Source of the DNA: an uncultured Gammaproteobacteria bacterium | GTDB taxonomy: Bacteria; Patescibacteriota; Patescibacteriia; UBA9934 | Reading direction: 5' to 3' | Assembly: GCA_964344415.1 (NCBI GenBank) | Contig: CAYFMS010000002.1 | Location: 142 to 64,141, forward strand | DNA length: 64,000 nucleotides | Program-made: the position numbers and the translations under genes | The notes under the pieces: model-generated | Database searches by the model: none | What the model was told of the DNA's origin: nothing | What the model saw: only the letters and a program-made list of their open reading frames with translations | Part shown: positions 1,455 to 57,630 of the stretch, piece by piece | How the letters are laid out: each line of letters begins with the position of its first letter | Numbering within the stretch: the first letter of the stretch is position 1

Positions 1455-3533
1455 ATGCCCGTTACGCTTGATACGGAAGTAAAGCTGGTGCCCGGGATTG
1501 GTGCAAAAAAAGCCGCCGATCTTGCGCGTCTAGGAATCGTCACATTGCGTGATGCTCTTTTTGAATTTCCATTTCGGTATGAAGATCTTTCTCAAACAGC
1601 GACGATGGCAAGCATTGTCCCTGGAAAGAAAATAACGGTTCGTGGAACGGTTACGGCGATTCAAAACAGGCGAAGCAAGCGGAATCCCCGCATGGTTGTG
1701 ACGGAAGCAATCATTTCTGATGACACAGGATCTATCAAAGCTATTTGGTTTCATCAAGGATTTTTAACAAAGACGCTTCGAACGGGTCGGCTCGTTTCTC
1801 TTTCTGGGAAGGTTGATTCTAAATATGGACTTTCGCTCGTGAATCCAGTTTACGAAATTCTTGGACTGAGCAAGGTAACAAAGCATACGGGGAGAATTGT
1901 ACCGATGTATCGACTGACGGGAGCCCTCACACAAAAAGTGATGCGGAGCCTAACAGAGCAGGCCGTGAAATGTATGAATGGTAGTCTCGAGGATTGGGTT
2001 CCAGAATCCATTGTTGAGCGTGAGAAATTTATGCATTTGCGAGATGCCATTTGCTCAATGCATTTCCCAAACTCGAAAGTAGATGAAGAGAAAGGACTGC
2101 ATCGACTGAAATACAATGAATTTTTACTGCATCAAATTTTGCACGGAAAGGCGCGTCGAGAATTGAAAAAAGAGAAAGCAACCGTTATTCCATTCAATGA
2201 AAGTGTCGTTAAGGAAATGGTAGATTCGCTACCATTCTCACTGACAGAGGCTCAGAAAAAGGCAATTTGGGCCATTATTAAAGATATGGAGCGCGATGAG
2301 CCGATGAATCGATTGCTTGAAGGTGATGTTGGGACAGGGAAGACGATTGTTGCGGCTATTGTTGCTCGTAATGTCGCGGCATCTGGCGCGCAAACAGCTA
2401 TTTTGGCGCCAACTGAAATCCTTGCAGAACAACATGCGCAGAGCTTGCAAGAATGTTTTGGTGATTCTATGAGCATTGCCGTTTTCACACGGACAAAGCG
2501 CCGTGTCGGAACGAAGGAAGTAACAAAGCAGCAAATGCTTGATGCGCTCAAGAACGGAAAAATTGATTTGGTTGTGGGAACACATGCTCTTCTTTCTGAC
2601 GGAGTTTGTTTTAATAGACTTGGTTTTATTGTTGTGGATGAGCAGCATCGTTTTGGTGTAAAGCAGCGTAAAGCTCTCAAGGATAGGGAAGGGGATGCTG
2701 ATGGAATTCCACATTTGCTTTCGATGACGGCGACGCCAATCCCGCGGTCGCTTGCACTTGTTTTATACGGAGATCTAGACCGATCTCTTCTTGACGAGTA
2801 TCCAGCTGGCCGAAAACCTGTTACGACATCAATTGTGACACCCGATCGGGAAGAACAGGTTTATCAGAGAATGCGTGATGAAATGGACGATGGCCATCAA
2901 GTTTTTGTGGTATGTCCACTTATTGAAGAAAGTGATGCGCTTGGTGTTCAGTCTGTGAGTCAGGTATTTAGTCATTTCGAGCAGGGGCCATTTCGTGCAT
3001 ACAATATCGCCATGCTTCACGGAAAAATGAAAACACAGGAAAAGGATGAGGTAATGGCAAGATTTTCTGCCGGTGAAATTGATATGGTCATTTCAACGAC
3101 TGTTGTTGAGGTTGGTGTCGATATTCCGAATGCAACCGTTATGTTTATTGAGGGTGCTGAGCGATTTGGCCTGGCGCAACTGCATCAATTGCGCGGGCGT
3201 GTTGGAAGAAGCGATATGCAAAGTTATTGTTATTTGCATCCCACGGATGAGCTTGGGGATTTGGCGCGTCAGCGATTGCGGGCTCTTGTCATGTCTCAGA
3301 ATGGATTTGAGCTTGCCGATAAAGATCTTGAACTTCGCGGTCCGGGGAATATTTTTGGAACAGAGCAGAGCGGTTTTGAATCATTTAAGTTAGGGTCCTA
3401 TGCCGATATGGATTTGATTTCAATGGCAAGGCAGGATGCAAAGGATTTGCTAGACGAGGATCCAGATCTCGAAAAATGGCCATTACTGCGTGATAGAGTT
3501 GAAAAATACGTCGCAGAAGTGCATTTCGAATAA
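1455..3533 (+). CDS. recG: ATP-dependent DNA helicase RecG
   Basis: 692 aa; Walker A GDVGTGKT, DEQHRFG (DEQH box), C-terminal helicase motifs QLHQLRGRVGR; N-terminal wedge-domain-like region. Confidence 0.9.
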   Translation: MPVTLDTEVKLVPGIGAKKAADLARLGIVTLRDALFEFPFRYEDLSQTATMASIVPGKKITVRGTVTAIQNRRSKRNPRMVVTEAIISDDTGSIKAIWFHQGFLTKTLRTGRLVSLSGKVDSKYGLSLVNPVYEILGLSKVTKHTGRIVPMYRLTGALTQKVMRSLTEQAVKCMNGSLEDWVPESIVEREKFMHLRDAICSMHFPNSKVDEEKGLHRLKYNEFLLHQILHGKARRELKKEKATVIPFNESVVKEMVDSLPFSLTEAQKKAIWAIIKDMERDEPMNRLLEGDVGTGKTIVAAIVARNVAASGAQTAILAPTEILAEQHAQSLQECFGDSMSIAVFTRTKRRVGTKEVTKQQMLDALKNGKIDLVVGTHALLSDGVCFNRLGFIVVDEQHRFGVKQRKALKDREGDADGIPHLLSMTATPIPRSLALVLYGDLDRSLLDEYPAGRKPVTTSIVTPDREEQVYQRMRDEMDDGHQVFVVCPLIEESDALGVQSVSQVFSHFEQGPFRAYNIAMLHGKMKTQEKDEVMARFSAGEIDMVISTTVVEVGVDIPNATVMFIEGAERFGLAQLHQLRGRVGRSDMQSYCYLHPTDELGDLARQRLRALVMSQNGFELADKDLELRGPGNIFGTEQSGFESFKLGSYADMDLISMARQDAKDLLDEDPDLEKWPLLRDRVEKYVAEVHFE

Positions 3534-3535
3534 AA

Positions 3536-4852
3536 TTATTTTGATGGCGTGAATGCTTCTTTAAGCGTTCGATAGTCTTTTGATGTAATGATATGTTCAA
3601 ATCCCATGCGCTCGGCCTCTTTGATTCGCTTTTCAAGCAGGGAAACATTGCGAAGTTCACCCGATAATCCAACTTCGCCAATATAAACGCTATTTGGTTT
3701 TGGAAGCTTGTCTTGAAAACTAGAAATAATGGCAGCGATGATAGCAAGATCTGCGGCCGTTTCTTTTATTTTCATTCCACCAATGACATTTACATAGACA
3801 TCATGTGAACTCAAGCTGATGCCAGCTCGCTTGCTAATAATCGCAAGAAGCATATGTAGCCTTGAACTATCGACGCCGCTTGCGCGACGAAGTGGATTGG
3901 GATAGTGACTTTGCTCAACAAGCGCTTGAATCTCAACAAGAAAGGGTCGATTACCTTCCATGATGCAGGTGATGACGGATCCAGGGCCGTCAACACGCTC
4001 AGCTAGGAATCGTTTGGATGGGTTCTCAACAGGTATCATTCCTGATTCAGTCATTTCAAATACACCAATCTCATCTGTGCTTCCAAAACGGTGCTTAGCT
4101 ATATGCATCATGCGAAAGCTTGTTTTTTTATCTCCTTCAAGCGTAATAACGGTATCAACAAGATGTTCGAGTGTTTTTGGTCCCGCGACGGATCCCTGTT
4201 TTGTTACCTGGCCGATGAGCAGCACGGGAACATTTGTGCTTTTCGCAAATCCAATGAGTTGGGATGTTGCAGCTCGAACCGCTGTTGGTGATCCTGGTAG
4301 ATTGTCAGCATCTGCAGGAATCATGGTTTGAATCGAATCGATAATAACGAGCTGCGGTTTTATCTGATCTGCCGCTGCAATAATTGAGTCGATTTGAACA
4401 GTATTTGAAAATGAGATTTGTTTGGGTTCTATGCTGAGTCTTTTGAATCTCATCAGAACTTGACCCTCGGATTCCTCTCCAGAAATATAGAGCACAGGTT
4501 TTTGTTTCGATTTTGTAAGAGAGTCCGCTATTTGGGCGACAAGTGTTGATTTTCCAATTCCTGGTTCACCAGCAAGAAGTAGGATAGATCCCGGAACAAT
4601 TCCGCCAGAAAGAACACGGTCGAGTTCTGGTATATTCGTCGGTTCATGCTTTGCTTTTTGTTTGGATGCTGATGAAAGTTCAAGAAGAGGGGCCGGTGCA
4701 GCCCCTCCTTTTTTTGATTGTTTTTTTGTAGCGCCGATGCTGGCAGGTGCTTCAGAGGATCCTGACTCGATGAGCGTACCCCATTTTCCGCATTCACTGC
4801 ATCGACCTTGCCACTTCAAGCTCTGTGCATCGCAATGACTGCAATGATACAT
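3536..4852 (-). CDS. radA: DNA repair protein RadA/Sms
   Basis: 438 aa; N-terminal C4 zinc finger CSHCDAQSLKWQGRCSECGKW, RecA-like Walker A GEPGIGKST, KNRFG motif, C-terminal Lon-protease-like domain. Confidence 0.92.
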   Translation of the reverse strand: MYHCSHCDAQSLKWQGRCSECGKWGTLIESGSSEAPASIGATKKQSKKGGAAPAPLLELSSASKQKAKHEPTNIPELDRVLSGGIVPGSILLLAGEPGIGKSTLVAQIADSLTKSKQKPVLYISGEESEGQVLMRFKRLSIEPKQISFSNTVQIDSIIAAADQIKPQLVIIDSIQTMIPADADNLPGSPTAVRAATSQLIGFAKSTNVPVLLIGQVTKQGSVAGPKTLEHLVDTVITLEGDKKTSFRMMHIAKHRFGSTDEIGVFEMTESGMIPVENPSKRFLAERVDGPGSVITCIMEGNRPFLVEIQALVEQSHYPNPLRRASGVDSSRLHMLLAIISKRAGISLSSHDVYVNVIGGMKIKETAADLAIIAAIISSFQDKLPKPNSVYIGEVGLSGELRNVSLLEKRIKEAERMGFEHIITSKDYRTLKEAFTPSK

Positions 4853-4853
4853 A

Positions 4854-6224
4854 CTATCTGATTTGTTTGCATGAATTCTTGGTCCAATCCCATTTTACAC
4901 AAGTGTCAGGGACTGTGTACCGTTTATCCCGAGTATAGCTAATAGAATTATTGCTTGTTGAACATCCACGGGAAACGCTCAGGTTATTTAATTCAAAATG
5001 CCATGGCTCGCTTGAAATACGACAGAATCCATTGTCGATCATAGCTCGTGTCATTTCATTGGTGCATTCGACGTCTAAATTATTGCGAGTACTGCCGACA
5101 CAATAAACATCCACGGCAACAGATGAAGTATGCGGACAATTACCAATATTGGCATTTTGCGTTAATTGGCTGACAATGACGCTTTCGCTTGTTTGTCCAG
5201 CGAGACTGCCGCTTAAGGTGTATTGACCATTTACCTTTTCAACAAGTCCAGTGCCAGCCGCTGGGTTGCATGTTGGTATGGTGCAGGATCCTGTTTTAAG
5301 GCAATTGTCGTAAAAGAGTTGTGCTTGTTTCTCAGGATCGCGAAAGGCTGAAACGATTCGAATATCGGTATTGGTTTCTTCATAGAGGTCGATCGCGGCA
5401 TTTTCAAGTGCTGCAAGGGCATCGGGATTAATGCGATTATCTCTTGCATTTACAATGATATGCTGGCCGATAATTGGGACGAGGTCGCCAGATATATCCG
5501 TTCTCGGAATGGCTTCATGTTCACCGTCTGGGTGCAAATGATGGGGGCTGCTTTCAATATAGCGTAGATTCAAACTCTCAAAGCGCGTCAGGCGAGGGTC
5601 AATAAGCTCCGCAATTGCTACAATAAGCAGAACGACAACAATGCTCATAATCGCCTTCCCAAGGAGTGCTTTTGCTCTACCTGTTTGAGCGGAATCGCCA
5701 CGTGCAAGCATCCACATAAGCCCCGCAATCATAATGATAATGACGGCAATGACAGACGTGATTACAATCAAGATTTGATAAGCGGCATTTACATAAACGC
5801 CAATGAAATTTGAAGAGATTGCTTCGCCGCTTTGCGTAGGCTGCGAAAAAATGGCTCCTGGAAGTGGTATAGCAAGATTGGGGGTCTGAGCATCTTTCTT
5901 TACAACTTCTTCATCGGTAGAGCTTGGTTGATCGTCGATATTTCCAGATGTAATAGCGCTTGTGCTTGCGCCGCAGAATGCTTGAAATGTACCGCGCTCG
6001 AATCCAAGAATTTCCTTGCAGGCCGTTTGGCACTCGGTCGCAAGAACGGATTCTCCAGATGCAGCAACAGCATCTGCAATACTCCCAGTGCTATCAAGAT
6101 ATAATTCCGTTCGATCACCATCAGAGCAATCACATACATAGGGATCTTGGCAGGCGGCCAACGTTACGATTGGAAATGTAAGTAGTGCAACAATGGCTGG
6201 AACGATGAATGCGATTCGAATCAT
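4854..6224 (-). CDS. Cys-rich secreted/membrane protein: signal peptide, two-helix hydrophobic hairpin (VirB2/TrbC-pilin-like topology) fused to C-terminal peptidase M15 (VanY/D-Ala-D-Ala carboxypeptidase-like) domain
   Basis: Signal peptide MIRIAFIVPAIVALLTFPIVTLAAC; hairpin ILIVITSVIAVIIIMIAGLMWMLARGDSAQTGRAKALLGKAIMSIVVVLLIVAIAELI; M15 motifs SAFRDPEKQAQL, SVAVDVYC and EPWHFEL; >20 Cys. ATGA overlap with downstream DsbA-like gene. Confidence 0.55.
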   Translation of the reverse strand: MIRIAFIVPAIVALLTFPIVTLAACQDPYVCDCSDGDRTELYLDSTGSIADAVAASGESVLATECQTACKEILGFERGTFQAFCGASTSAITSGNIDDQPSSTDEEVVKKDAQTPNLAIPLPGAIFSQPTQSGEAISSNFIGVYVNAAYQILIVITSVIAVIIIMIAGLMWMLARGDSAQTGRAKALLGKAIMSIVVVLLIVAIAELIDPRLTRFESLNLRYIESSPHHLHPDGEHEAIPRTDISGDLVPIIGQHIIVNARDNRINPDALAALENAAIDLYEETNTDIRIVSAFRDPEKQAQLFYDNCLKTGSCTIPTCNPAAGTGLVEKVNGQYTLSGSLAGQTSESVIVSQLTQNANIGNCPHTSSVAVDVYCVGSTRNNLDVECTNEMTRAMIDNGFCRISSEPWHFELNNLSVSRGCSTSNNSISYTRDKRYTVPDTCVKWDWTKNSCKQIR

Positions 6225-6862
6225 AATTCTGTGGAGAGAAGATTGTCGAGAAGTGTCCGTAAATCATTCTCACTGACGGCTCCGGTAAGACGCTCGGTAT
6301 TTACGAAGATTGTTGGTGCGGTTGTTAGACTTAGGTCTTCAGCTTCTTGTGCAGAATCATGAACGACGCCAGCCATCTTTTCGCCAGAAAGGCAGCGATT
6401 AAATTTTGGTAGATTGAGGTCAATCATCTCCGCAATGTCGGTGTATGCCTGACCACCAAGCTCAATTCTGTGTTCATGCAAAATATCATGATATTCCCAG
6501 AAATAACCTTGATTGCCAGCACATTGCGCAGCGATAGCGGCATTCGTTGATTCGGGATTAAGTGAATCATTCGGAAAATCTTTCCAGACAATGGTGATAT
6601 TGTAATCGAGTGCGAGGCGCTGCATGATATGAGACATTTCTTTGCAACTTGGGCAGGTGAAATTGCTATAGAGAACTAAAACAGCATCGGGGCTTATACT
6701 GCCAATGAAAGGGTCGGTTGATCGAATGGTCGGTGACGTGGGTGTATTTAAATCAGTAAAAACAACGCTCCCGCGATCGAAAAGATGAAATGTAATGAAT
6801 CCTAAGATAATAATGACAAGCAAAATGGCTGGCAAAATAATGGCATGTGCTGTCAATTTCAT
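6221..6862 (-). CDS. thioredoxin-fold thiol:disulfide oxidoreductase (DsbA-like), membrane anchored
   Basis: 213 aa; N-terminal TM anchor; CPSC active-site motif (FTCPSCKEM); operonic with Cys-rich protein. Confidence 0.65.
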   Translation of the reverse strand: MKLTAHAIILPAILLVIIILGFITFHLFDRGSVVFTDLNTPTSPTIRSTDPFIGSISPDAVLVLYSNFTCPSCKEMSHIMQRLALDYNITIVWKDFPNDSLNPESTNAAIAAQCAGNQGYFWEYHDILHEHRIELGGQAYTDIAEMIDLNLPKFNRCLSGEKMAGVVHDSAQEAEDLSLTTAPTIFVNTERLTGAVSENDLRTLLDNLLSTEL

Positions 6863-6863
6863 A

Positions 6864-8087
6864 TTAGCGGAGTCTTATGGAATTTAATCGGTCAAATTCG
6901 TCTGTGAAATAGAGTGTGCTTTGATCAGCAGAAACGCTGAGGTCTTCGGCAATAATGTCGGTACTAGGTACGGCGAGGAGTTTTGATTGTCCGGTTGTGA
7001 CATTGATTTCGTATATGTCATCAGGTGCCGTGCTGAATTCATGCGAGTATCCAGTAAATGGTTCAATTTCGCGCGGAACAGCGCAAATGAGGAAGGTGTC
7101 ATCACGGAATGTACATTTCTCAATCCATGTCGGTACATTTAAATTACGTCGTTCAGCACCAATCTCATCCCCGGAAGCCTTCACATACCAAATACTTGGC
7201 CTTTCTTGATTGCTAGGATTTGATGTTGAATACGCAAGATGATTGCCGGTTGGCGACCATTTTGCAGAGAAATTTGTTCCATCAATAATGATGCTTCCTG
7301 GAGCATCTCCGTTCTGATCAATAAGAAGAACGGCATTCCGACCGAATCCAGCCTGAGCTTGCCCTGTTTGTGATAGACCGAGAAATTGATTATTTGGTGA
7401 CCAAAGGATGTCGAGCTTATGTTCATTTGATCCCAGTTCTGCAACGGCTTGTGCTTGAGTCCCATCTGTACTCATGACGACGAGTTGCCCATTATTGGCA
7501 TCAGCGATTGCCTTGCCGGCTAATGCGTCTCCATGCGGTGAAAAACCAAAGTCCTCCCAATGTGAAGGCATGGTTATTTGTTTATTCTGTTCGATATCGA
7601 AAAGAATATTGCTTCCATCTGGAAATTCCAGAATGGCCGCATCAGCATCTGGATTAAAAATAACTTCATCCGCACCAACGAATGCGGTATTTGAAATGGC
7701 AACAACACGCCCCTGTGCATCGATTTGATAAAACTGCCCATCATTTGGGTCATAATAGGCAATGTCATTTCCTGAAGATGAAGCTCCGGTAATTGCACTT
7801 GTTGTGAGCCTCGTTACAACTGTTTCGCCGCCGCGAGCAATGGGGGAAATAGGGAGTCCTGTTACCTCATCGATAATCTCTTCCTCTTCTTCGATGCGAT
7901 CCCCAACAAAGACATCCGAAGGAGAAATGACACCAGTTGCTATGTCTTCAGGAATATCGGTAATTGGTACTTCGGGTTTGCGACCGAAGAAAATCAAATA
8001 GAGAATAAGTCCAAGAAAAACAACGGATGCGGCGAATCCGGTGACTTGTAATGCAAATTTTAGGCGAGGATTCATCATATCAACCAA
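6864..8087 (-). CDS. membrane-anchored PD40/TolB-like beta-propeller protein
   Basis: 407 aa; N-terminal TM; repeated WSPxxxxLAxS motifs (WSPNNQFLGLS, WSPTGNHLAYST) typical of PD40 repeats. Confidence 0.5.
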   Translation of the reverse strand: MVDMMNPRLKFALQVTGFAASVVFLGLILYLIFFGRKPEVPITDIPEDIATGVISPSDVFVGDRIEEEEEIIDEVTGLPISPIARGGETVVTRLTTSAITGASSSGNDIAYYDPNDGQFYQIDAQGRVVAISNTAFVGADEVIFNPDADAAILEFPDGSNILFDIEQNKQITMPSHWEDFGFSPHGDALAGKAIADANNGQLVVMSTDGTQAQAVAELGSNEHKLDILWSPNNQFLGLSQTGQAQAGFGRNAVLLIDQNGDAPGSIIIDGTNFSAKWSPTGNHLAYSTSNPSNQERPSIWYVKASGDEIGAERRNLNVPTWIEKCTFRDDTFLICAVPREIEPFTGYSHEFSTAPDDIYEINVTTGQSKLLAVPSTDIIAEDLSVSADQSTLYFTDEFDRLNSIRLR

Positions 8088-8829
8088 AGAATTCAGACAT
8101 GAATGTATAAATAGTATTGAGTGGATCAGACCAAAATGCTACCCAAAAGTATAAGAGGGCTAAAATACCGAGTACAAGACCAACAAGTATTGCCCAGAGA
8201 AAGGCATTAATTCCATGATAAAGCCAGTCACTCATAACAAGCGCACTTTCTTCCGGATCATCGCCATATAATTTGAAGGCTGGGGGTGCTATTTTTTTGA
8301 ATGCTCCAATTCCACCGCCACTTCCTGCCATTTTATCAAGAGGAAGAATGGTTCGGAAAAATTGAGTCCATGTCACAATGCTCGCAATAATAAAATCAAA
8401 TGGATCATAGCTGAGGGATTTATACCCAAGCCAAAATCGTCTTGCCATCCTATCCGCCGTTTTATCAATCTGCGTATGTGATTCAAGCGCTGCCTTCTTT
8501 TGTTTTGCACTGACAATGCGTCTTGCTATTTGCAGCTGCGTATATGTCGGCAGAGCTCGCATTGGCATAGCGGATTCTGCAAATTGCCTTGCGGTACTCG
8601 AGCGTTCTTTTTGTGATTTTATGCTTAGATTCCGCCCCAAATTACGAGAAGACTGTCGAATATTGTCGATAGTGTTCTGCTGTCGCATTAAACTCTCTGC
8701 ACGATCGGATTCACTTACCCCTTGGGCGAGTGTAGATTCTGGCAAAACATTAAAAGAGAGTTGCCGTCTTGTCCTGCGCAACTCGGTTGCAATTTGCTTT
8801 TCGCTCCTAGGGCGAATCTCTGCAGCCAT
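8080..8829 (-). CDS. hypothetical membrane protein
   Basis: 249 aa ORF overlapping next gene by 8 nt; C-terminal TM helices; start not well supported by an RBS. Confidence 0.4.
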   Translation of the reverse strand: MAAEIRPRSEKQIATELRRTRRQLSFNVLPESTLAQGVSESDRAESLMRQQNTIDNIRQSSRNLGRNLSIKSQKERSSTARQFAESAMPMRALPTYTQLQIARRIVSAKQKKAALESHTQIDKTADRMARRFWLGYKSLSYDPFDFIIASIVTWTQFFRTILPLDKMAGSGGGIGAFKKIAPPAFKLYGDDPEESALVMSDWLYHGINAFLWAILVGLVLGILALLYFWVAFWSDPLNTIYTFMSEFFG

Positions 8830-8865: not shown

Positions 8866-11280
8866 TTACCCTGTGACTCGAATGACGATATCTCCATCCT
8901 GAATATCAGCATGGACGGTTCGTGCATTTTTACATGACAAAAGTTGTTCTGCGATTGGTATCTCTATTTTATTCTCAATCATGCGTGAAATGTCGCGGGC
9001 ACCGTATTGTTTGCGAATATCTTTGGCGAGCTTTTGCGGTACATTGGATCCGGCACTAAAATCGAGCCCCAGATTCATGAGTCTATTCGCGAGTTCTGAA
9101 ATCTGCTTTTTAATAATGCGTTTTACATGATGATCTGTCAGCGGTTTGAAGAGACCAAGGTAATTCATTCTACCCAGAAACTCGGCCGAAAAATGCGATC
9201 GTAATTCTTTTTCAAATGCTTCATCTTTATCCGAATTCTTTGTGAATCCAAGACCGTCACTATTTGCAATGCGCGATCCGGTATTTGATGTAAAAACAAA
9301 TACAGCATTTTTTGCATTGATTGTTCTTCCTGTTGAATCGGTTGCGACACCGGAATCGAGTATTTGAAGTAAGGCATGCTGCACATGCGGATGAGCTTTT
9401 TCGATCTCGTCAAAAAGAATAAGAGAGTGTGGATGTTGTTTTAAGTGATCCGTGAGTTTCGCACTTTCGCGATAACCGACATATCCCGCTGGCGCCCCAA
9501 AAAGACTGGAAACAGTAAAACTTGATGCATATTCGCCCATATCAAGTCTTAAGATAGGCGTATTCTTGAACAGATGCTCAGCTATTTTCTCTGCAAGAGA
9601 TGTTTTTCCGCTTCCGCTTGGTCCTGCAAAGAAAAATGATGCAAGCGGACCGCGATGCTTACCGAGCCCAATCACACTTCGAACAAGAGATCGCGACACC
9701 TGATCAATGATATGATCTTGGCCAATAATATCTTTTTTGAGTGTACGTCGTAGTTTTGATAACTGCTTTGATTTCGATTTTGGCTGCACATTCATGCCCG
9801 TCATCTGCTCAATGACATGCAAAATCTCTTTCTCATCTATAACAGTTTGCTTCGCCTTACTCTCTTTTTTCAATTTCTTTAATGCACGCTTGATTTCATC
9901 TTCACGTTTTTTACATTCCTTTGCTTTGTCATACTGTTCATCGCGAGCGAATGATTCTTTTTTCTTCTTTATATCCCGAAGCTCCTTATGTAATTTTTCC
10001 TTATTTGCCAACGTTTTCGTCTTTTTCGGGCGGAATGTTGAACCGGCTTCGTCAAGAATATCTATCGCTTTATCAGGGAAGTGCCGATCAAGCATGTACT
10101 TAGAAGCACCTTTTACAGTCGACAGTATGGCTTGATCGCTATACCGCACATTATGATGTTCTTCATAATATGGAATGATGCCGCGTAGTATCTGGAGCGT
10201 TTTCTCTTCATCAGGCTCATGAACGCGAATCGACTGAAAGCGTCGCTCAATCGCATTATCCTTTTCGATATGCTTTTTATATTCACTGAGTGTAGTTGCC
10301 CCGATGCATCGAATAGTACCCCTTGCAAGTGCGGGCTTTAAAATATTTGCAGCATCAAGAGATCCGCCGGCACTTCCGGCCCCCATAATGGTATGAACTT
10401 CATCAATGAAAAGAATAATATTTCCGCATTCCTCAATTTCTTCGATGAGTTGCCGTAAGCGAGATTCGAATTCTCCTCGATACATTGTTCCAGCAAGCAC
10501 GGCAGATAGGCTGAGTGAATGCAGTTTCATTCCCTTCAAATGAACCGGAACATCACAGTCCGCAATGCGTTTTGCAAGTCCTTCGACAATAGCTGTTTTT
10601 CCAACACCAGGATGACCGATGAGAATGGGATTATTTTTACTCCGTCTACCCAATATGGTCATCATGCGACTGATTTCTTTCTCTCTGCCAAAAACCGTAT
10701 CAATATTTTTTGAGTATTCATGATGCGTGAGCTCATCCGTAAAATAATCAAGAGCCGGGTACGCTGGCGTTTTCTCGTCTTTTTGCGCAGGACTCGTTGT
10801 TAAAATCCCGTCTCCAATTTGAGGGACTGAGAAGGGAAAATCAGAACTCACCTTGAATGTTGTTTGTAGTGATTCATCAAGAAAGGCGATATCAATATCA
10901 AAATCAGAAAAATAGCTCATGACCTCATCTGATTTCATTTGAAGTAGCGCATAAAGTAAATGCTCGGTCCCGATGAATCTATGTTCATATAAATTGGCGA
11001 CGGCTACCGCTTTTTCTATCATGACTTTTGCATCATTCGATAGGGTAGGGAGAGCCTCTTTTTTCTGCTGTTTCATTGATGTGCAGGCAATGAAAATACT
11101 TTCCGCATCTGCTCCAGATTTACTGAGTACATCAGCGGCAAGCGATCCTTGCTGACTTGATAGAGCCCATAAAATGTGAATAGGGTCCACGGTTTCATGA
11201 TGCTGTTCAACAACAAATGTGAGCGCACGTGCGAGGACGCTTTTTAAATGATCGGTGAATTTTGAAATGATATCTTGCAT
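8866..11280 (-). CDS. clpC: ATP-dependent Clp protease ATP-binding subunit (ClpC-type, two AAA+ modules)
   Basis: Clp N-domain repeats, Walker A GHPGVGKTA and GPSGSGKT, charged coiled-coil linker, sensor motifs. Start chosen at internal ATG (M12 of the 815-aa ORF) so that it does not overlap htpX. Confidence 0.85.
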   Translation of the reverse strand: MQDIISKFTDHLKSVLARALTFVVEQHHETVDPIHILWALSSQQGSLAADVLSKSGADAESIFIACTSMKQQKKEALPTLSNDAKVMIEKAVAVANLYEHRFIGTEHLLYALLQMKSDEVMSYFSDFDIDIAFLDESLQTTFKVSSDFPFSVPQIGDGILTTSPAQKDEKTPAYPALDYFTDELTHHEYSKNIDTVFGREKEISRMMTILGRRSKNNPILIGHPGVGKTAIVEGLAKRIADCDVPVHLKGMKLHSLSLSAVLAGTMYRGEFESRLRQLIEEIEECGNIILFIDEVHTIMGAGSAGGSLDAANILKPALARGTIRCIGATTLSEYKKHIEKDNAIERRFQSIRVHEPDEEKTLQILRGIIPYYEEHHNVRYSDQAILSTVKGASKYMLDRHFPDKAIDILDEAGSTFRPKKTKTLANKEKLHKELRDIKKKKESFARDEQYDKAKECKKREDEIKRALKKLKKESKAKQTVIDEKEILHVIEQMTGMNVQPKSKSKQLSKLRRTLKKDIIGQDHIIDQVSRSLVRSVIGLGKHRGPLASFFFAGPSGSGKTSLAEKIAEHLFKNTPILRLDMGEYASSFTVSSLFGAPAGYVGYRESAKLTDHLKQHPHSLILFDEIEKAHPHVQHALLQILDSGVATDSTGRTINAKNAVFVFTSNTGSRIANSDGLGFTKNSDKDEAFEKELRSHFSAEFLGRMNYLGLFKPLTDHHVKRIIKKQISELANRLMNLGLDFSAGSNVPQKLAKDIRKQYGARDISRMIENKIEIPIAEQLLSCKNARTVHADIQDGDIVIRVTG

Positions 11281-11281
11281 A

Positions 11282-12184
11282 TCACATCGATCGTAACTTC
11301 GCGATACGGTCATTAATTGGTGGATGTGTATTGAAGAGCTTACTCAAGAAACTGACGGGCCTTTTCTTTCCATTCGCATCCGCTTTGAAGGGATCAGAAA
11401 TATACAGATGGGCCGTCGCATGATTTGCTCGTTTCAGCGGCGGCGCAGAGGCGATTTTTTCAAGAGCGCTTGCGAGTCCTTCAGGATGACGTGTAAGCAT
11501 CGCACCAGACGCATCTGCCAAATATTCCCTTGTTCTTGAAATAGAGAGTCGTATGATTTGTGCAAATAGAGGAGAGAGAATGCCCAAAACAAGCCCCACG
11601 ACGAGAATGGCGAGCCCGATCTTATTATCTCGATTACCGCGCCGGCGATAGAATTGCGATCGAAGTAAAATATCTGAAAGGAGAACAATCAGTCCGATTA
11701 AAACGACAACAATCGTCATGATTCGAATATCATAATTCTTAATATGGCCGAGTTCATGTGAGAGTACACCCTCGAGCTCTTGTTTATTCAGCCGTTCAAG
11801 TAATCCTGTCGTGACGGCGACAGATGCATGTTCTGGGTCACGCCCTGTTGCAAAAGCATTCGGGCTAGGATCGTCAATGACATAGACTTTTGGAACGGGA
11901 AGGCCGGCAGTAATGCAGAGATTTTCAACCATTGCATACAATTCATATGCTTCCTTTTTGGTCACCTCTTTTGCCCCCTGACTGGAAAGCGCCACTTTGT
12001 CAGCTGAATAAAAACTGATGAGCGAATAAATAAAAGTAATAACAAATCCCAGTATGGCGCTACTGACAAGGTCGAGCTCTAAAAATGCCATGCCAAAGAA
12101 AATAACAATAATCGTCGCGACGATTGAGAAGAGGAAAAGTAATATCCACGTATTGCGTTTATTGCGTGATATCGCTTTGTACAT
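11282..12184 (-). CDS. htpX: zinc metalloprotease HtpX (M48 family)
   Basis: 300 aa; HELGH zinc-binding motif (LSHELGHIKNYD); four TM helices. Confidence 0.85.
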   Translation of the reverse strand: MYKAISRNKRNTWILLFLFSIVATIIVIFFGMAFLELDLVSSAILGFVITFIYSLISFYSADKVALSSQGAKEVTKKEAYELYAMVENLCITAGLPVPKVYVIDDPSPNAFATGRDPEHASVAVTTGLLERLNKQELEGVLSHELGHIKNYDIRIMTIVVVLIGLIVLLSDILLRSQFYRRRGNRDNKIGLAILVVGLVLGILSPLFAQIIRLSISRTREYLADASGAMLTRHPEGLASALEKIASAPPLKRANHATAHLYISDPFKADANGKKRPVSFLSKLFNTHPPINDRIAKLRSM

Positions 12185-12186
12185 AG

Positions 12187-12213
12187 AGAAAAAGCCTCGA
12201 GTGATCGAGGCTT
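12187..12213 (-). terminator. rho-independent terminator after lemA
   Basis: aagcctcgagtgatcgaggctt hairpin plus T-run on the minus strand, immediately before the htpX start. Confidence 0.6.
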
Positions 12214-12766
12214 AGAATGTTACTTCTGGTGTGTTATTTACTTCATCTGGTGCATCGAAGAAATCTCGATTTTTGAACCCGAGCATGCCGGCAAATATAT
12301 TCGTTGGGAATACTTGTTGTTTTGTATTGAAATCTCGAACTTGGCCATTGTAGAACCGTCTTGCAGATTGAATCTTGTCTTCCGCGTCCACAAGTTCTCG
12401 CTGCAAATGCAAGAAATTATCTGATGCTTTCAGGTCCGGATATCCTTCCGCAACAGCGAAAAGACTTTTAATTGTTTCCGTAAGCATGTTTTCACTTTCT
12501 GCATGTTCAGCTGGGGTCTTCGCTTGCATGGCTTGACTGCGAGCTTCCGTCACTTTTGTGAAGACGCTGTCCTCGTGTTTCGCATATCCCTTTACGGTAT
12601 TCACAAGGTTAGGGATGAGGTCGTATCGACGCTTTAATTGCACCTCGATGTCAGACCATGCTTCATCAACGCGATTACGTGATCGAATAAGTCCATTAAA
12701 AACAGCAATTAGCCCGAGAGCGAGCAGGATAACAATAGCTAAAACAATAATAAGAACTGTAGGCAT
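12212..12766 (-). CDS. lemA: LemA family protein
   Basis: 184 aa; N-terminal TM then conserved LemA core (NGLIRSRNRVDEAWSDIEVQLKRRYDLIPNLV). Confidence 0.85.
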   Translation of the reverse strand: MPTVLIIVLAIVILLALGLIAVFNGLIRSRNRVDEAWSDIEVQLKRRYDLIPNLVNTVKGYAKHEDSVFTKVTEARSQAMQAKTPAEHAESENMLTETIKSLFAVAEGYPDLKASDNFLHLQRELVDAEDKIQSARRFYNGQVRDFNTKQQVFPTNIFAGMLGFKNRDFFDAPDEVNNTPEVTF

Positions 12767-24119: not shown

Positions 24120-25289
24120 GTGAAATATAATAAGAATATGAGCAGAGCCAGAAAACCTCTTTCACGGTCACTTCGCGTGTATCAGCGCGCGGCTGTTGTA
24201 TTTGTTGTGCTTTCATTCTTGCTTTTGATCGCAGTACTGTACTTATCTGTCTCGCAGGCAACCATTCGAATCAATCCAAAACCGGAAATTATTCAGACGA
24301 CATTTGAGTTATCTCTTGTTGATAATGTGCAGCGCGAGGGCCAAATCGCAGGCCTCCTTACTCAGCAGGAGGTGACAAAGTCGAAAAGCTTTACATTGCC
24401 AGAAGAGGGGGCGAGTGCTGTTGAGTCTAAAGCCACAGGTTTTGTGACGCTTATCAATGAAACAGGTAGCGATCAGCCACTTGTAGCAACAACACGATTG
24501 CTGGCAGAAAATGGAATTTTATTCAGGCTTGATGATGCCGTCACAATTCCGGCAAATGGTGAGGTCATCGCTAAGGCTTCCGCCGATCAACCTGGTTTAA
24601 CGGGTGAGATTGATGCGACACGATTCACTATTCCGGGCCTCAATGTCACAAAGCAATCTTCAATTTACGCTGTAAGCTCTGAAAAAATGACGGGCGGTAT
24701 TCAATATGTGCGTGTATTGACGCAAGCAGATATTGATAGCGCAACACAGCAATTAAAACAGGAAATGCTCAATGATGTCATGAATGAATTACTTGCGGGT
24801 GCAGATGAAAGCGTCTTTGATGGTAAAGGTTTTGGTGTTGAATTGAGCACCGTTCAATCCGATACGGAAGTTGGATCTGAAACGGGCGTATTTTCTTTAA
24901 CAGCAACGGGAATGGTAACGGGCGCGCTGTATTCTACGGAATCGGTAGAGGTGTATGCTACAGATCAATTAGCAGCCGAAGTTCAAGACGGATTTCAACT
25001 TGCTAAGACGAATATAGATGGCTTGCAAGTTACAATTGAACAAACAGATATCGAAAAGGGAATCGCGCAAGCAAGTGTATATATTGATGGAATTTCTGTT
25101 ATTTCAGAGAAAAATGATTTGCTGGATAAATCTCGATTCGCTGGCCAGTCGCCACAAGCGGTTAAAACGATGTTGAATGTCCCTGAAGTGATCGAGGATA
25201 TTTCAGTTAGTTTTCAGCCATTCTGGCTCAAGCGCGTACCAACGCTTAAGGATCACATTAAAATTGTGATTGTAACAAGGGGATTATAA
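24120..25289 (+). CDS. hypothetical membrane-anchored protein
   Basis: 389 aa; N-terminal TM (AAVVFVVLSFLLLIAVLYL); GTG at 24120 or ATG at 24138; DnaA-box-like cluster ends at the start codon. Confidence 0.5.
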   Translation: MKYNKNMSRARKPLSRSLRVYQRAAVVFVVLSFLLLIAVLYLSVSQATIRINPKPEIIQTTFELSLVDNVQREGQIAGLLTQQEVTKSKSFTLPEEGASAVESKATGFVTLINETGSDQPLVATTRLLAENGILFRLDDAVTIPANGEVIAKASADQPGLTGEIDATRFTIPGLNVTKQSSIYAVSSEKMTGGIQYVRVLTQADIDSATQQLKQEMLNDVMNELLAGADESVFDGKGFGVELSTVQSDTEVGSETGVFSLTATGMVTGALYSTESVEVYATDQLAAEVQDGFQLAKTNIDGLQVTIEQTDIEKGIAQASVYIDGISVISEKNDLLDKSRFAGQSPQAVKTMLNVPEVIEDISVSFQPFWLKRVPTLKDHIKIVIVTRGL

Positions 25290-53217: not shown

Positions 53218-53487
53218 TGCCTCTCCGTGTGCAGCGCCGCAGAGTGGGTCTGCGGCTTTGCCATGGAGATGTATCCAAGTTTACGCTTGGTTATCTCCGT
53301 CATTTTAAATCTCAGTGCGAACTTAAAGGTCGAGGCTTTTTCTTTAAAAGGGGCGTCTACCTAACGGCATTTTGCAGACCAAATGTATCTGGAAAAGTAC
53401 CATTAGGCAGACGCCCTACACGTTATGCGTGTGAAGAATAAGTCGTTTGCGCTTTTACTCTTAACTATAAGAAAGGATAAATCATTT
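53218..53487 (+). promoter_or_regulatory. long structured 5' leader of the giant surface-protein gene
   Basis: 270-nt ORF-free region with nested stems (ggagatgtatccaag...cttggttatctcc; 14-bp stem gggcgtctacctaa...ttaggcagacgccc). Confidence 0.5.
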
Positions 53488-56400
53488 ATGAATGATTCAA
53501 CTTTTGCAAAACGTGCCCTCTCTGTAGCTGTTGCTGCTGCAACCATTCTATGGGCTGTTGGAGCTGCAGCTTTCGCTGTGCCAACAACAGCAAGCGCAGC
53601 TGATGCTGGAGACGTCGTTCGAAGCACATCACTTTCAACAGTGTACTTCGTTGGTTACGACGGTGCGCGTTACGCATTCCCTAATGAAAAAACCTACGAC
53701 ACTTGGTTCGATGGTTTTGGAAGCGTAGAGACTATCTCTGACGCTGACGTTGCTGGCATGACACTTGCTGGAAACGTCGTATACCGTCCAGGTTCACGGT
53801 GGATTAAAATTACTTCTGCAGCAGAAACATATGCTGTTGGACGTGATGGAATGATCTACTGGATTGAAACTGAGGACGTTGCTACTGACCTCGCTGGAAG
53901 CGACTGGAACCAGAACATCGACGATGTTTCTGATTCACTATTCACCGACTACTCTGAAGGAGTTTCACTCTCATCTGCAACAGTATGGGATGGAGCACTT
54001 TACATGGATGGAAGCGATTACATGCTTTCATGGGACGGTGAAGCTCGAACAGTAACTGCCGCAGGTCGAAGTGCTAATGACCTTGAAGACGGATTCTTCC
54101 TTGACGGAGATTCAATCGACGCAAGCTCACTTTCTGCAGGATCAGACCTTGATGGTGCTGACTGTGATGTAAGCGATGCTTCGCAAACTGATTGTGTTGT
54201 TACCTCTGCTGGAGGTGATGTAACTGTTTCTACTTCTTCAAGTACTGCAGCTGGAGCTACTATTCCAGGTGGAGCTACTTCTGTTGAAGTATTCAGTTTC
54301 GACCTTACAGCTGCCGATGCCGCAAATGTTAATGGTGTAACCCTTGACTTTAACGGTATTGCTGCAGTATCTAATATTTCAAATGTATACCTTTATGAAG
54401 GTATGACTCGTTTGACAGAATCACGAAGCGTGAACAGTTCTACACGAGAAGTAACATTTGGAAGCCTTGACCTTGACATTGCTGCGGGAGCAACGCGAAC
54501 AATTACTGCTCGTGTTGAAATCGCAACTGCACAAACAGCTGGAGATGAATTCTACTTCTCTATCGATGGTGCAAATGCTGAGGCTGATGGAACTGTTTCA
54601 GGTTCTGCTACCGGTGAAACATTCACCATGGGTGCGCAGGATGTTGGAACGGTGACTGTTTCAAACAATGGAACGGTTACAAACCCATCTCTTGGTGAAG
54701 ATGATGCTAAGATTGCTCAATTCCAAGTAGCACCTTCTGGAGAAGATGTGGACCTTGAAGAATTGACACTTAAGATCGACAATGCAGCTGATCACTCTGA
54801 CTTCAAGCTATGGACTCTTTCTAATGAGCTCGTTGGAACTGGTGAATACATCGGTGACAAGCTTGTAAGTTTCGATGTTGATGGTGTTGACACTATCGAA
54901 GATGGTGACAATGACATCTTCAAGGTAACAGCTGACATTGGTGGAGAATCAGGTGATACAGTTGACCCATACCTTGATAATACGGTTGATGTGCTCGCTG
55001 TTGGTACTGACTATGGTTTCGGAAACGCAATCACAAATAGTTATGCATCTGCAAGTCAGTCAACGACCATTCAAGGTGGTAATGTAACATTTACCTTCTC
55101 AGGTCCAAGTGCAGGAGACATCTTGGTAGATAGCCAGGATCAGGTTCTTCTCGAATTCACATTGACATCTGCTGAAGATATCACTGTGAAGGATCTAGAC
55201 GTTATCGTGTACGCTGATGATGATGCGGACAATGACGCTACTGACGGAACAGATAGTAGTGACAGTGATAATGATGGTCTTATCAATACTGGTGATGAAG
55301 CAAACTTGAAGGATATCCGTATTATTAATGCTGATACTGGAAAGACACTTATGGGACCACTTGAGCTTGACTGTACAGCTGACAACACTGCTTGTTCTGC
55401 TACAGGATCAAGTACCCAGGGTGACGGTTCTCAGACCATTGACTTCACAGACGATTTCGGTGTTGATGCTGGCGAAGTTCTTCGATTGCAAGTTACAGGT
55501 GACATTGATGACACGGTAACAAGCGGTACAGAATTCGCGGCAACTATCGACATTTCAGGATTCGTTGCTGAAGATACAAATGGAGATAACCTAACACTTG
55601 CAACAGATGTTGTTCCTACAGGTGACATCATTGGTAATAACCAGGAAGCACTTTCTGCTTCATTGACACTTACTCTTGGATCTACTCCAGGTGATGTGAC
55701 AACAGTTCACGGAACAAGTGATGTTGTTGTAAACCGATTCAACCTGCAAGCAGGTGATGCTGGAACAATTGACGTCTCTCAAATCGTGGTATCTGTTTAC
55801 TCAGATGACACAGTAGCTTCTGGTGCATATACACTTGGTGACCATACAACGGCTCCAGATGTAAATGACTATGTATCTAGCTGTACTATCTACGATGTAG
55901 ATGACAACTTGCTTGACGGCCCAACATCTCCGGCTGCTAATGGTCAAACCATTACATTCGATGATGTTGACTGGACGATTGAAGCGAGTGAAAATGAAGA
56001 GATTGAAGTACGTTGTGACTTCCACAATCCTTCATCTACAACGGAATATTACTTCGCTTGGGACATTAACGATGCTTCTGAAGACATCGTTGCTCAGGAT
56101 GAAGAAGGTACAGACGTTGATCCGACGGCTGATGATCCAAACGGAGCAACCAACCCAACAAACATTGTGACGGTTGCGGCTTCTGGAAGCCTTGCTCTTA
56201 CACAAGACTCTAGTGCCCCTGCAGCTGACTTTGTTCTTACCGGAACAAATGACAATCACGTTTCAGCATTCCGATTGGATGCAACGAATGAGTCATTTGA
56301 AGTAACGCGATTCACGCTTACAGAGGAAGAAGCTGAAGACATGGGTCTTGGTACGGATGCAACGGATTATGTGAACAATATCTCTAGCATGACGATTGAA

Positions 56401-57630
56401 TACCCAATGGAAGATGGTTCTACGGGTACTGCGTCTGCATCAATAAGTACGAATGAAGCTATCTTCACAGGACTTGAGATGTATGTTGAAGAAGGTGAAG
56501 CTGCGGTAGTCGACGTATATGTTGATGTCCCAGCGACAGACCGAACTGGAAGTGGTTCTGCTACTTCTAATGAACGTATCTCTATTGGTTGGGATGCAGA
56601 TACCACAAACAATAATCACATTATTGCGAATGGTGTCGGATCAGGATTCCAGCTTACGGATACGGACAATGATGGTTCTGGTACTAACTTCTCAGACGTT
56701 GTAAGCGGAAATGCATTCGTTGTTCGAGAAACAGCACCTACAATCACATTGAATTCATCTTCTCCAAGTGGAACAGGATTTGTTCCTGGAGATCAGGAAG
56801 TTATCCGATTCAATGTTTCAGCAAGTTCAAATGAGAGCGTTGTATGGGAAGAAATGGTATTCGATGTCGCAGCAACAGATAACACGGGTACTCCAACTCA
56901 GTGGGATCATTGTGACGACGGAGATACAACGAATGGATTCATTGCTGAATCACAATTCGATCTCTACAACCTTTCAGATGCAGGTCTAACGACAGCTCTT
57001 GATACGGCAGACGGTGACTGGACTCTCTACTCAACAGAGGGTGGTACACTCGATATTTGTGACGAAACAGCTGACACCAATGCTGGTGAGGTTGTAACGC
57101 ATGCAAAGATCACATTGCCAACTGCTGAAACGGTTCCTGCTGGAGAGACATACATCTACTCTCTGTACTATGACTCTCAGTACGCTTCTGCGGCGAATGA
57201 TGATTCTGTACAATTCGGAATTGCATCAGATCCAATCGTTGCAGTAACATCGGCTGAAGCTATGACAGACGTTGATGAAGGTGGAGGTGTAACAGCTACT
57301 GATACTAACTTCACATTGACATCTGGAACAGGAATTTCTCGTGGAGACATTCTCTGTCTGGACGATGAAGATGTAGCTGGTTGTGACACTGCGGACGAGC
57401 TCGCTCTCGTTACCTACATCACTGGTGCAGAGGTATATCTTGTTCGAGGTTACCTCGGAACAACCCCTGCAGCTCTTGTTGATGCAGATGACGTAGACAT
57501 GGTTCCTGCATCATTCGTATGGCGTGACGACGGTTCTACAACCGCGCTTACGACAACCTCTATGGATGAGTACTGGGGATCTTACCTCGTTGATAGTCTT
57601 CCTATTGACGGTGGTGCGATGGGATTCTAA
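53488..57630 (+). CDS. giant secreted acidic surface protein (S-layer/adhesin-like; Thr/Asp/Gly-rich, Ig-like repeats probable)
   Basis: Start at ATG 53488 (MNDSTFAKRALSVAVAAATILWAVGAAAFA signal peptide) within the 1401-aa ORF; low-complexity acidic composition; 270-nt structured leader; terminator 57694-57720. Confidence 0.7.
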   Translation: MNDSTFAKRALSVAVAAATILWAVGAAAFAVPTTASAADAGDVVRSTSLSTVYFVGYDGARYAFPNEKTYDTWFDGFGSVETISDADVAGMTLAGNVVYRPGSRWIKITSAAETYAVGRDGMIYWIETEDVATDLAGSDWNQNIDDVSDSLFTDYSEGVSLSSATVWDGALYMDGSDYMLSWDGEARTVTAAGRSANDLEDGFFLDGDSIDASSLSAGSDLDGADCDVSDASQTDCVVTSAGGDVTVSTSSSTAAGATIPGGATSVEVFSFDLTAADAANVNGVTLDFNGIAAVSNISNVYLYEGMTRLTESRSVNSSTREVTFGSLDLDIAAGATRTITARVEIATAQTAGDEFYFSIDGANAEADGTVSGSATGETFTMGAQDVGTVTVSNNGTVTNPSLGEDDAKIAQFQVAPSGEDVDLEELTLKIDNAADHSDFKLWTLSNELVGTGEYIGDKLVSFDVDGVDTIEDGDNDIFKVTADIGGESGDTVDPYLDNTVDVLAVGTDYGFGNAITNSYASASQSTTIQGGNVTFTFSGPSAGDILVDSQDQVLLEFTLTSAEDITVKDLDVIVYADDDADNDATDGTDSSDSDNDGLINTGDEANLKDIRIINADTGKTLMGPLELDCTADNTACSATGSSTQGDGSQTIDFTDDFGVDAGEVLRLQVTGDIDDTVTSGTEFAATIDISGFVAEDTNGDNLTLATDVVPTGDIIGNNQEALSASLTLTLGSTPGDVTTVHGTSDVVVNRFNLQAGDAGTIDVSQIVVSVYSDDTVASGAYTLGDHTTAPDVNDYVSSCTIYDVDDNLLDGPTSPAANGQTITFDDVDWTIEASENEEIEVRCDFHNPSSTTEYYFAWDINDASEDIVAQDEEGTDVDPTADDPNGATNPTNIVTVAASGSLALTQDSSAPAADFVLTGTNDNHVSAFRLDATNESFEVTRFTLTEEEAEDMGLGTDATDYVNNISSMTIEYPMEDGSTGTASASISTNEAIFTGLEMYVEEGEAAVVDVYVDVPATDRTGSGSATSNERISIGWDADTTNNNHIIANGVGSGFQLTDTDNDGSGTNFSDVVSGNAFVVRETAPTITLNSSSPSGTGFVPGDQEVIRFNVSASSNESVVWEEMVFDVAATDNTGTPTQWDHCDDGDTTNGFIAESQFDLYNLSDAGLTTALDTADGDWTLYSTEGGTLDICDETADTNAGEVVTHAKITLPTAETVPAGETYIYSLYYDSQYASAANDDSVQFGIASDPIVAVTSAEAMTDVDEGGGVTATDTNFTLTSGTGISRGDILCLDDEDVAGCDTADELALVTYITGAEVYLVRGYLGTTPAALVDADDVDMVPASFVWRDDGSTTALTTTSMDEYWGSYLVDSLPIDGGAMGF

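Follow-up and report, generated by a model that had tools for sequence, protein, structure and literature searches.

The 64,000-nucleotide (nt) stretch of DNA analysed here (from contig CAYFMS010000002.1; hereafter the window, in whose coordinates positions are given) carries on its minus strand a compact cassette of four genes, g1 to g4, the last of which is predicted to encode a cell-wall hydrolase fused to a membrane hairpin of the VirB2/TrbC pilin type. None of the cassette proteins has a name in the source databases. The four gene models were matched by independent gene calls on two metagenome contigs that encode identical proteins, and the open reading frames (ORFs) are, in order of transcription:

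8080-8829, minus strand: g1, ORF of 249 aa, first gene of the cassette
6864-8078, minus strand: g2, 404 aa from an ATG start, or extending to 8087 with an alternative TTG start (407 aa)
6221-6862, minus strand: g3, ORF of 213 aa
4854-6224, minus strand: g4, ORF of 456 aa

A first-pass annotation of this DNA had described four overlapping minus-strand genes, with the 456-aa one in first place and a CPSC thioredoxin-fold protein immediately downstream of it. The four genes stand, but a true overlap (ATGA) is present only at the g3/g4 junction; g1 and g2 overlap, by 8 nt, only when the TTG start of g2 is used, and are otherwise separated by 1 nt, the same gap that separates g2 from g3. The order must also be reversed, the 456-aa gene being the last of the four to be transcribed and the DsbA-like g3 lying directly upstream of it.

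The g4 protein is laid out as a signal peptide, a head (N-domain and hairpin), a linker, and a C-terminal catalytic domain (C-domain):

6153-6224, minus strand, residues 1-24: Sec-type signal peptide, likely cleaved after TLA
5820-6152, minus strand, residues 25-135: N-domain, predicted extracytoplasmic, with 6 Cys, ending in an invariant PxLxVxIPG
5580-5819, minus strand, residues 136-215: two-helix transmembrane (TM) hairpin with VirB2/TrbC-type homology (PF18895)
5508-5579, minus strand, residues 216-239: flexible linker after a conserved IDPRxTxF, boundary of catalytic-domain exchange
4857-5507, minus strand, residues 240-456: predicted LAS/M15 (VanY/LdcB-like) zinc peptidase domain, with 10 Cys

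Hydrophobicity profiles of g4 display a signal-like segment at residues 1-26 and two further segments at ~140-177 and ~183-214, in agreement with the helices 140-173 and 178-208 of the AlphaFold2 (AF2) model, which are joined by the basic loop ARGDSAQTGRAK (also given as RGDSAQTGRAK). Thus, the signal peptide and the two-helix hydrophobic hairpin with a short basic loop noted in the first-pass annotation are recovered. Orthologue N-termini are likewise signal-like and end in A-x-A-type sites in the alignment. The LAAC stretch of g4 (residues 20-25) resembles a lipobox, but its Cys is not positionally conserved in orthologues and lipidation is doubtful. Predicted local distance difference test (pLDDT) scores are 55-75 in the N-domain and fall below 50 over residues 209-234. 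The protein contains 16 cysteines, instead of the more than 20 previously claimed, 6 of them before the hairpin, including a CxC plus C65/C69/C84, and 10 in the C-domain.

The resemblance of the hairpin to VirB2/TrbC-type pilins, also proposed in the first-pass annotation, falls below Pfam cut-offs when g4 is taken alone (T4SS_pilin, E 0.045, 14.3 bits against a cut-off of 26.6; TrbC, E 0.047), and is settled at family level. PF18895 is matched by 9 of 10 g4 orthologues (best E 7.7e-11) and by 36/36 and 44/45 members of two sets of relatives with other C-terminal tails, with TrbC matched by 3 of the 36 (1e-7). Moreover, HHalign aligns residues 108-202 of the family with a protein made up of six bona fide PF18895 repeats at 95.9% probability (E 6e-9). 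On this profile evidence the hairpin is homologous to the VirB2/TrbC-type pilins, a group catalogued in Patescibacteria as PF18895/PF04956 and greatly expanded there (PMC12102498). The g4 protein shares with these pilins the phylum, the signal peptide, the two TM helices, and the short positively charged loop, but it is not a small protein, its 456 aa contrasting with the ~100 aa of the pilins and its hairpin being flanked by globular domains on both sides (an N-domain of ~110 aa and a catalytic C-domain of ~220 aa). In addition, it is not near virB4 in the loci examined. One relative, P0132 (552 aa), is built of six PF18895 hairpins in tandem on one chain (E 2.9e-71, six stretches), a polytopic membrane protein that shows the hairpin in use as a general membrane module.

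For the C-terminal region, the first-pass annotation had proposed an M15 domain, a proposal that several lines of evidence endorse. The motifs are located at residues 292-303 (SAFRDPEKQAQL), 368-375 (SVAVDVYC), and 406-412 (EPWHFEL), and they match the M15/LAS set, namely SxxR..Q (S292-A-F-R295...Q300), H365-x6-D372, and ExxH (as E406-P-W-H409), with H365, D372, and H409 as predicted zinc ligands and E406 as the predicted catalytic residue. Every one of 116 cluster representatives has R295, and at least 90% of them retain each of Q300, H365, D372, E406, and H409, which argues for g4 being an active enzyme under selection. The VanY family (PF02557) is matched by g4 with E 1.1e-4 and 22.4 bits, under the 25-bit Pfam cut-off, and at E<=0.01 by only 4 of 10 orthologues. 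A 10-sequence g4 profile found no match in a sequence search of the PDB. With the 116-sequence profile, the nine best PDB matches are all M15 enzymes (E 0.003-0.9), comprising VanX, YodJ/LdcB, Ply500, two further LdcB entries, LysB4, and VanY-type enzymes (entries among the matches are 4ox3, 4mph, and 4jid for YodJ/LdcB and 1r44 for VanX); a tenth M15 enzyme, VanXYc, appears at rank 13, and the VanX and YodJ alignments put the g4 motifs in register. Residues 240-456 are modelled by AF2 with pLDDT 82-97, and Foldseek retrieves for this model first hedgehog N-terminal domains (probability 1.0, E 1.7e-3), which are classic structural relatives of DD-peptidases, with MepA at rank 9, and, against a viral library, first phage endolysins (E ~1e-3, probability 0.99-1.0). 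Altogether, motifs, profiles, and model converge, each score under its curated threshold, and make the assignment of the C-domain as a LAS/M15 zinc peptidase well supported.

Compared with VanY/LdcB enzymes (DacB, YodJ; MEROPS M15B; LAS), g4 shares the SxxR..Q, H-x6-D, and ExxH motifs and may share the hedgehog/DD-peptidase fold, and like them it would be an extracytoplasmic, membrane-tethered wall peptidase. On the contrary, g4 lies below the Pfam cut-off, has large Cys-rich insertions and a Cys-containing C-terminal extension (417-456), and would be carried by a C-out two-helix hairpin with an extra N-domain, where those enzymes have a single N-terminal anchor or a lipid.

The fusion is no rarity and represents one form within a broad modular family, far larger by profile search than by word-based search: an exhaustive profile search retrieves 8,608 cluster representatives at E<=1e-10, of which 445 remain at E<=1e-30. 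Among the best 156 family proteins, 104 combine the hairpin with a g4-type domain, and 39 share the N-domain and hairpin but carry another C-terminal region. In the 36 of these 39 that were examined, the tails are Peptidase_M23 (11), NlpC/P60 (9), C39-like papain-fold (8), M15_4 (4), 3D (1), and SLT (1). A comparable repertoire is displayed by the 45 non-g4-type hairpin proteins from loci collected around g2 (see below), with M15_4 (7), M23 (7), C39-like (6), NlpC/P60 (5), and SLT (5), together with the rarer glucosaminidase, Amidase_5, and GDSL esterase (1 each). The slot between the DsbA-like gene and radA is occupied by a hairpin with M15_4 in two loci (L040/L041) and with M23 in two others (L042/L043). 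Heads do not follow tails: the nearest head carries a different tail in 55 of 139 proteins, and head identity reaches 64% across NlpC/P60-, M23-, and M15-tailed proteins. By BLASTP, g4 and an M23-tailed relative are homologous over residues 7-223 (33%, 4e-29), and this homology stops just past IDPRxTxF, inside the low-confidence linker. Since heads interleave among tail types and homology ends at the linker, these comparisons indicate that the conserved head has repeatedly exchanged its catalytic domain, each time at the same junction, which would make the family a clear-cut natural case of modular evolution in enzymes.

The cassette partners of g4 differ in how readily they can be assigned. 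The thioredoxin-fold, DsbA-like nature of the CPSC protein was rightly recognised in the first-pass annotation: g3 matches Thioredoxin_4 (E 5.3e-20, 72.7 bits against a cut-off of 23.2) and DSBA (E 1.9e-12, 47.8 bits against 25.6), has its CPSC motif at C70/C73, and begins with a hydrophobic N-terminus (1-35). By its sequence, it is clearly a predicted membrane-anchored DsbA-like thiol-disulfide oxidoreductase.

The g2 protein is the most conserved of the cassette, with 172 detected homologues of uniform length (~405 aa), and combines a TM helix at its N-terminus with a PD40-type beta-propeller, joined through a disordered linker, which agrees with the PD40 propeller noted in the first-pass annotation. 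Its AF2 model (pLDDT 91) comprises a helix at 4-31 and an all-beta region at 97-402, and Foldseek against the PDB returns propellers (E 2.8e-12 to 1e-9) including DPP-IV, tricorn, and TolB. PD40 is matched by 17 of 45 homologues (best 5.4e-10), the g2 of the window itself giving weak PD40 matches only. It is not a TolB equivalog, as it reaches 22 bits with TIGR02800, whose cut-off is 343, and the TM anchor replaces the TolB N-terminal domain; Tol-Pal genes are absent among the annotated neighbours. Across the 45 homologues, the motifs EFPDGxN and PxHW(E)DF (residues ~151-177) and the Cys pair C322/C332 are invariant, and the motifs could mark a ligand-binding or even catalytic site instead of a passive scaffold. 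The best structural match of g2 is the propeller of a metal-dependent oligogalacturonate lyase.

The g1 protein, which lacks cysteines, contains a hydrophilic, basic N-terminal region of ~200 aa that is probably cytoplasmic, followed by a hydrophobic segment towards the C-terminus (202-237). It has no Pfam or NCBIfam match, a homologue search returned only g1 itself, and jackhmmer against all locus ORFs failed to link it with its positional analogues. Such analogues (250-330 aa, with a hydrophilic N-terminus and C-terminal TM segments) nonetheless lie upstream of g2 in most related loci, forming loosely linked families. In some genomes this position is taken by another hairpin protein, with a PF18895 match and a C-terminal region without Pfam match (L023:5640-7322, L024:7068-8246, L035:6111-7541, and L037:6370-7659).

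The cassette lies between housekeeping genes, and the first-pass annotation had named conservation of the neighbourhood in relatives as a check on its proposal. The flanking genes are:

8866-11313, minus strand: upstream flank, clpC-type AAA+ chaperone gene, outside the cassette proper
11282-12184: htpX, preceding clpC, synteny retained in related loci
12212-12766: lemA, preceding htpX and clpC, synteny retained in related loci
3536-4852, minus strand: downstream flank, radA
1455-3533, plus strand: recG, convergent with radA

A scan of one genome per species gathered 35 loci with g4 relatives in Patescibacteria-type metagenome-assembled genomes (MAGs), including Uhrbacteria, Veblenbacteria, and Moranbacteria. 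Approximately 25 of them keep the order g2, DsbA, g4, RadA with convergent RecG, an old synteny retained even at 23-30% g4 identity, and lemA-htpX-clpC is often found upstream. To avoid the bias introduced by the M15 motifs, an independent sample of 80 metagenome loci was collected via g2, and 46 of them had enough downstream sequence to be evaluable. At least one hairpin gene lies between g2 and RadA in 43 of these 46, RadA comes after the hairpin gene(s) in 42, and in 39 a DsbA homologue separates g2 from the hairpin gene. Hairpin genes number two or three in 15 loci; at least one g4-type (VanY-like M15) tail is present in 14, and 29 carry other tails exclusively. The cassette is thus shown to run, between clpC and radA, from a g1-like membrane protein through a TM-anchored PD40 propeller and a TM-anchored DsbA-like protein to one to three hairpin proteins, and neither the architecture of g4 nor its neighbourhood is due to chance, because both recur in dozens of independent genomes.

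In the window, clpC lies 36 nt upstream of g1 and radA starts 1 nt past the g4 stop codon. As this tight packing runs into radA with clpC only 36 nt away, the transcription unit probably exceeds the four genes; a scan for internal promoters and terminators gave nothing convincing above background level and does not delimit the operon. In Bacillus, clpC and radA adjoin in the clpC operon. Judged against that arrangement, the four-gene cassette resembles an insertion into an old clpC-radA unit, with lemA-htpX upstream and recG convergent downstream.

Hairpin proteins are rich in cysteine (3.1-4.0%, versus 1.2% in RadA/RecG of the same loci), and the co-encoded g3 would probably form the disulfides in both g4 (16 Cys) and the propeller (one conserved pair). 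The first-pass annotation had similarly suggested that the DsbA-like protein oxidises the 456-aa protein, a plausible idea to which a co-variation test lent no support, its outcome being the reverse of that expected. In a sublineage without adjacent DsbA (L054:7219-8925, L055, L059, L062, L063, and L070), the hairpin proteins are longer (~530-750 aa), end in C39-like tails, and carry at the N-terminus duplicated repeats rich in Cys (18-28 Cys). A fused DsbA or thioredoxin domain was looked for in these long hairpin proteins of the DsbA-less loci and none was found.

Considering these observations, the reading here preferred, to which a probability of roughly 0.55 is assigned, is that g4 would be a membrane-tethered hydrolase acting on the wall of its own cell from a pilin-derived anchor. 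After cleavage of the signal peptide, the hairpin would insert in the N-out/C-out topology that VirB2-type pilins have in the membrane, with its basic loop in the cytoplasm, as expected from the positive-inside rule, so that N-domain and catalytic domain would both face the wall. The linker, of ~30 residues, would limit the enzyme to the wall layers closest to its own membrane, where it would cut stem peptides of the peptidoglycan, making space for growth, division, or envelope machines. The pilin-like hairpin would thus serve as a membrane anchor or assembly module and not as a filament subunit, and the propeller g2 and g1 might act as scaffold or regulator. The tail families of the slot proteins are all wall-active, in agreement with this proposal. 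Moreover, since tails that cut different bonds are interchangeable, the conserved need would be the opening of the wall beside the membrane and not the cleavage of a particular bond. A housekeeping role in the own envelope is further favoured by the fixed clpC-radA position and by the annotated neighbourhoods, which contain no families of the type IV secretion system (T4SS).

A similar logic is found among the space-maker endopeptidases, which include MepS/MepH (NlpC/P60), MepM (M23), and MepA (LAS) in E. coli and CwlO/LytE, under membrane-complex control, in B. subtilis. There, unrelated catalytic families are interchangeable for wall opening under the control of membrane-proximal partners, as would be the case in the cassette, a likeness that is one of analogy and not of whole-system homology. 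The cassette differs in having no FtsEX-like partner, its partners being a PD40 propeller, a DsbA-like protein, and a fast-evolving membrane protein.

Several points weigh against a tethered housekeeping hydrolase. Each single M15 match is sub-threshold (VanY 22.4 versus 25 bits; PDB E>=0.003; Foldseek E>=1e-3). The roles of scaffold or regulator proposed for g1 and g2 are guesses, and Cys content does not track the presence of a neighbouring DsbA gene, the median being 23 Cys in hairpin proteins from loci lacking one versus 14. Synteny with clpC and radA may partly reflect shared ancestry instead of functional coupling. Furthermore, the hairpin is a true VirB2-family homologue of a kind that Patescibacteria T4SS loci encode, a T4SS encoded outside the 64-kb window might act in trans, and swappable tails on a constant head resemble polymorphic effectors.

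The last considerations lead to the alternative that survives best, although it appears unlikely, in which g4 would be a wall hydrolase associated with a T4SS or pilus, with a VirB1-type function fused to a VirB2-type pilin. Here the hairpin would join the pilin pool, or the pilus base or tip, of a T4SS encoded elsewhere, and the enzyme would open either the wall of the producer for the machine or that of a host at the contact site. In line with this, the hairpin is a bona fide PF18895/TrbC homologue, and two to three tandem hairpin hydrolases in some loci are reminiscent of pilin arrays. Most Patescibacteria genomes with VirB2 homologues have no recognisable VirB1 (PMC12102498), a gap that these fusions could fill. 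PrgK and comparable T4SS hydrolases of monoderms join a membrane anchor to M23, SLT, and CHAP domains (PMC12102498), and so use the same catalytic families as the tails found here. The comparison can be extended to PrgK (pCF10), TraG (pIP501), and CwlT (ICEBs1), which are membrane-anchored and share the M23/LytM, SLT, and CHAP/NlpC-P60 families, with several hydrolase activities side by side, as in some hairpin loci too. Their anchor is a simple N-terminal one. However, those enzymes are encoded in conjugation clusters, in contrast to the pilin-type hairpin placed here in a clpC-radA housekeeping region.

This genomic context gives no backing to the secretion- or pilus-associated role that the first-pass annotation had suggested. 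The clpC-radA-recG setting is present in every locus examined and remains fixed across distant lineages; no T4SS Pfam families occur within +/-8-10 kb in eight annotated loci, and a scan of the ten largest ORFs of the 64-kb window returned none either. Besides, a VirB2-type filament would hardly accommodate an N-domain of ~110 aa and a C-domain of ~220 aa on every subunit, and the six-hairpin chain of P0132 suggests that the hairpin can be an ordinary membrane module.

A more specific version of this idea, in which the hairpin still acts as a pilin, is quite unlikely. The fusions would then enter the T4SS pilin pool and a VirB2-type filament would present them at its base, its tip, or its surface, or release them at the conserved IDPRxTxF junction. 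If it were true, epibiotic Patescibacteria would possess a wall-cutting pilus with the propeller and the DsbA-like protein as its assembly factors, and this would explain why most VirB2-bearing genomes have no recognisable VirB1.

It is improbable that g4 is a polymorphic antibacterial or host-attacking effector, whose constant head would deliver wall-degrading tails as toxins of an epibiotic cell against hosts or competitors. A constant N-terminal region with exchangeable C-terminal domains, the layout of polymorphic toxins, is indeed found in the g4 family, with heads and tails phylogenetically interleaved, and multiple tandem copies occur in 15 of the 46 g2-centred loci; Patescibacteria are, moreover, commonly epibionts (PMC10633639, PMC12102498). 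In contrast to polymorphic toxins, the cassette contains no candidate immunity gene, radA coming 1 nt after g4 and RadA following in 42 of 46 loci, and it occupies a stable core-genome position instead of a variable island, with no linked secretion genes in the annotated loci. Two TM helices and a linker of ~30 residues would also not allow the enzyme to reach the wall of another cell unless it were released or polymerised.

There is likewise little reason to expect a strict VanY/LdcB-type carboxypeptidase, trimming the terminal D-Ala (or tetrapeptide) from stem peptides or lipid II on a generic hairpin anchor, and thereby tuning cross-linking or glycopeptide sensitivity. The closest profile matches are VanY, YodJ/LdcB, and VanX, and VanY and LdcB are themselves membrane-anchored or lipoproteins. 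Nonetheless, M23, NlpC/P60, SLT, glucosaminidase, or amidase domains, which are not carboxypeptidases, take the place of the M15 domain in the orthologous slots; this argues that single-residue trimming is not the conserved function, and bond specificity within M15 cannot be read from sequence. Finally, an endolysin of prophage origin whose membrane segment is of the holin-like or signal-anchor-release kind, to which the Foldseek matches with phage endolysins (E ~1e-3, probability 0.99-1.0) might point, is effectively ruled out by a chromosomal context of housekeeping neighbours without nearby phage genes, conserved in dozens of genomes, and by a hairpin that fits the pilin family and not holins.

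The first-pass annotation had regarded a peptidase fused to a pilin-like hairpin as a non-described architecture and, in agreement with it, no description of either the pilin-hydrolase fusion or the cassette was found in the literature, in a search of incomplete coverage for which absence is not proof. A survey of Patescibacteria T4SSs, a 2025 review of T4SS nomenclature, and a paper on Southlakia genetics cover VirB2-like pilins and VirB1-like hydrolases separately, never fused. Thus, both building blocks belong to known families, and their fusion and the cassette are apparently undescribed. This bears on how genomes are annotated, since the PF18895 "T4SS pilin" is among the most abundant Patescibacteria-specific annotations and is now read as evidence of conjugative-type pili. 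A sizeable conserved subset of its matches would instead be anchors of predicted wall hydrolases, far from T4SS genes, which changes how PF18895 matches should be counted and interpreted. The hairpin-hydrolase fusions are also natural candidates for the "missing VirB1" of Patescibacteria T4SSs, and the cassette offers a conserved, testable envelope module in organisms whose wall growth and division are almost unstudied.

The rest of the window is housekeeping DNA, with recG, radA, clpC, htpX, lemA, pheT, dnaE, gyrB, thrS, gatB, and an RseP-type protease gene, and its source is a small-genome bacterium of the ultra-small Patescibacteria type. Within the 64 kb, neither Rfam or tRNA features nor a second hairpin, N-domain, or M15 paralogue were detected. 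Two long plus-strand ORFs have no Pfam match at E<=1e-5, one of 389 aa (24120-25289) and one of 1401 aa (53425-57630), the latter followed by a subtilase (58495-60030). The MAG records that hold the cassette are often titled "uncultured Gammaproteobacteria bacterium" (L005, L007, L008, L010, and others), with one each under Kapaibacterium, Micrarchaeota, and Bdellovibrionales, and their gene content suggests that such titles are placeholder or wrong taxonomic labels.

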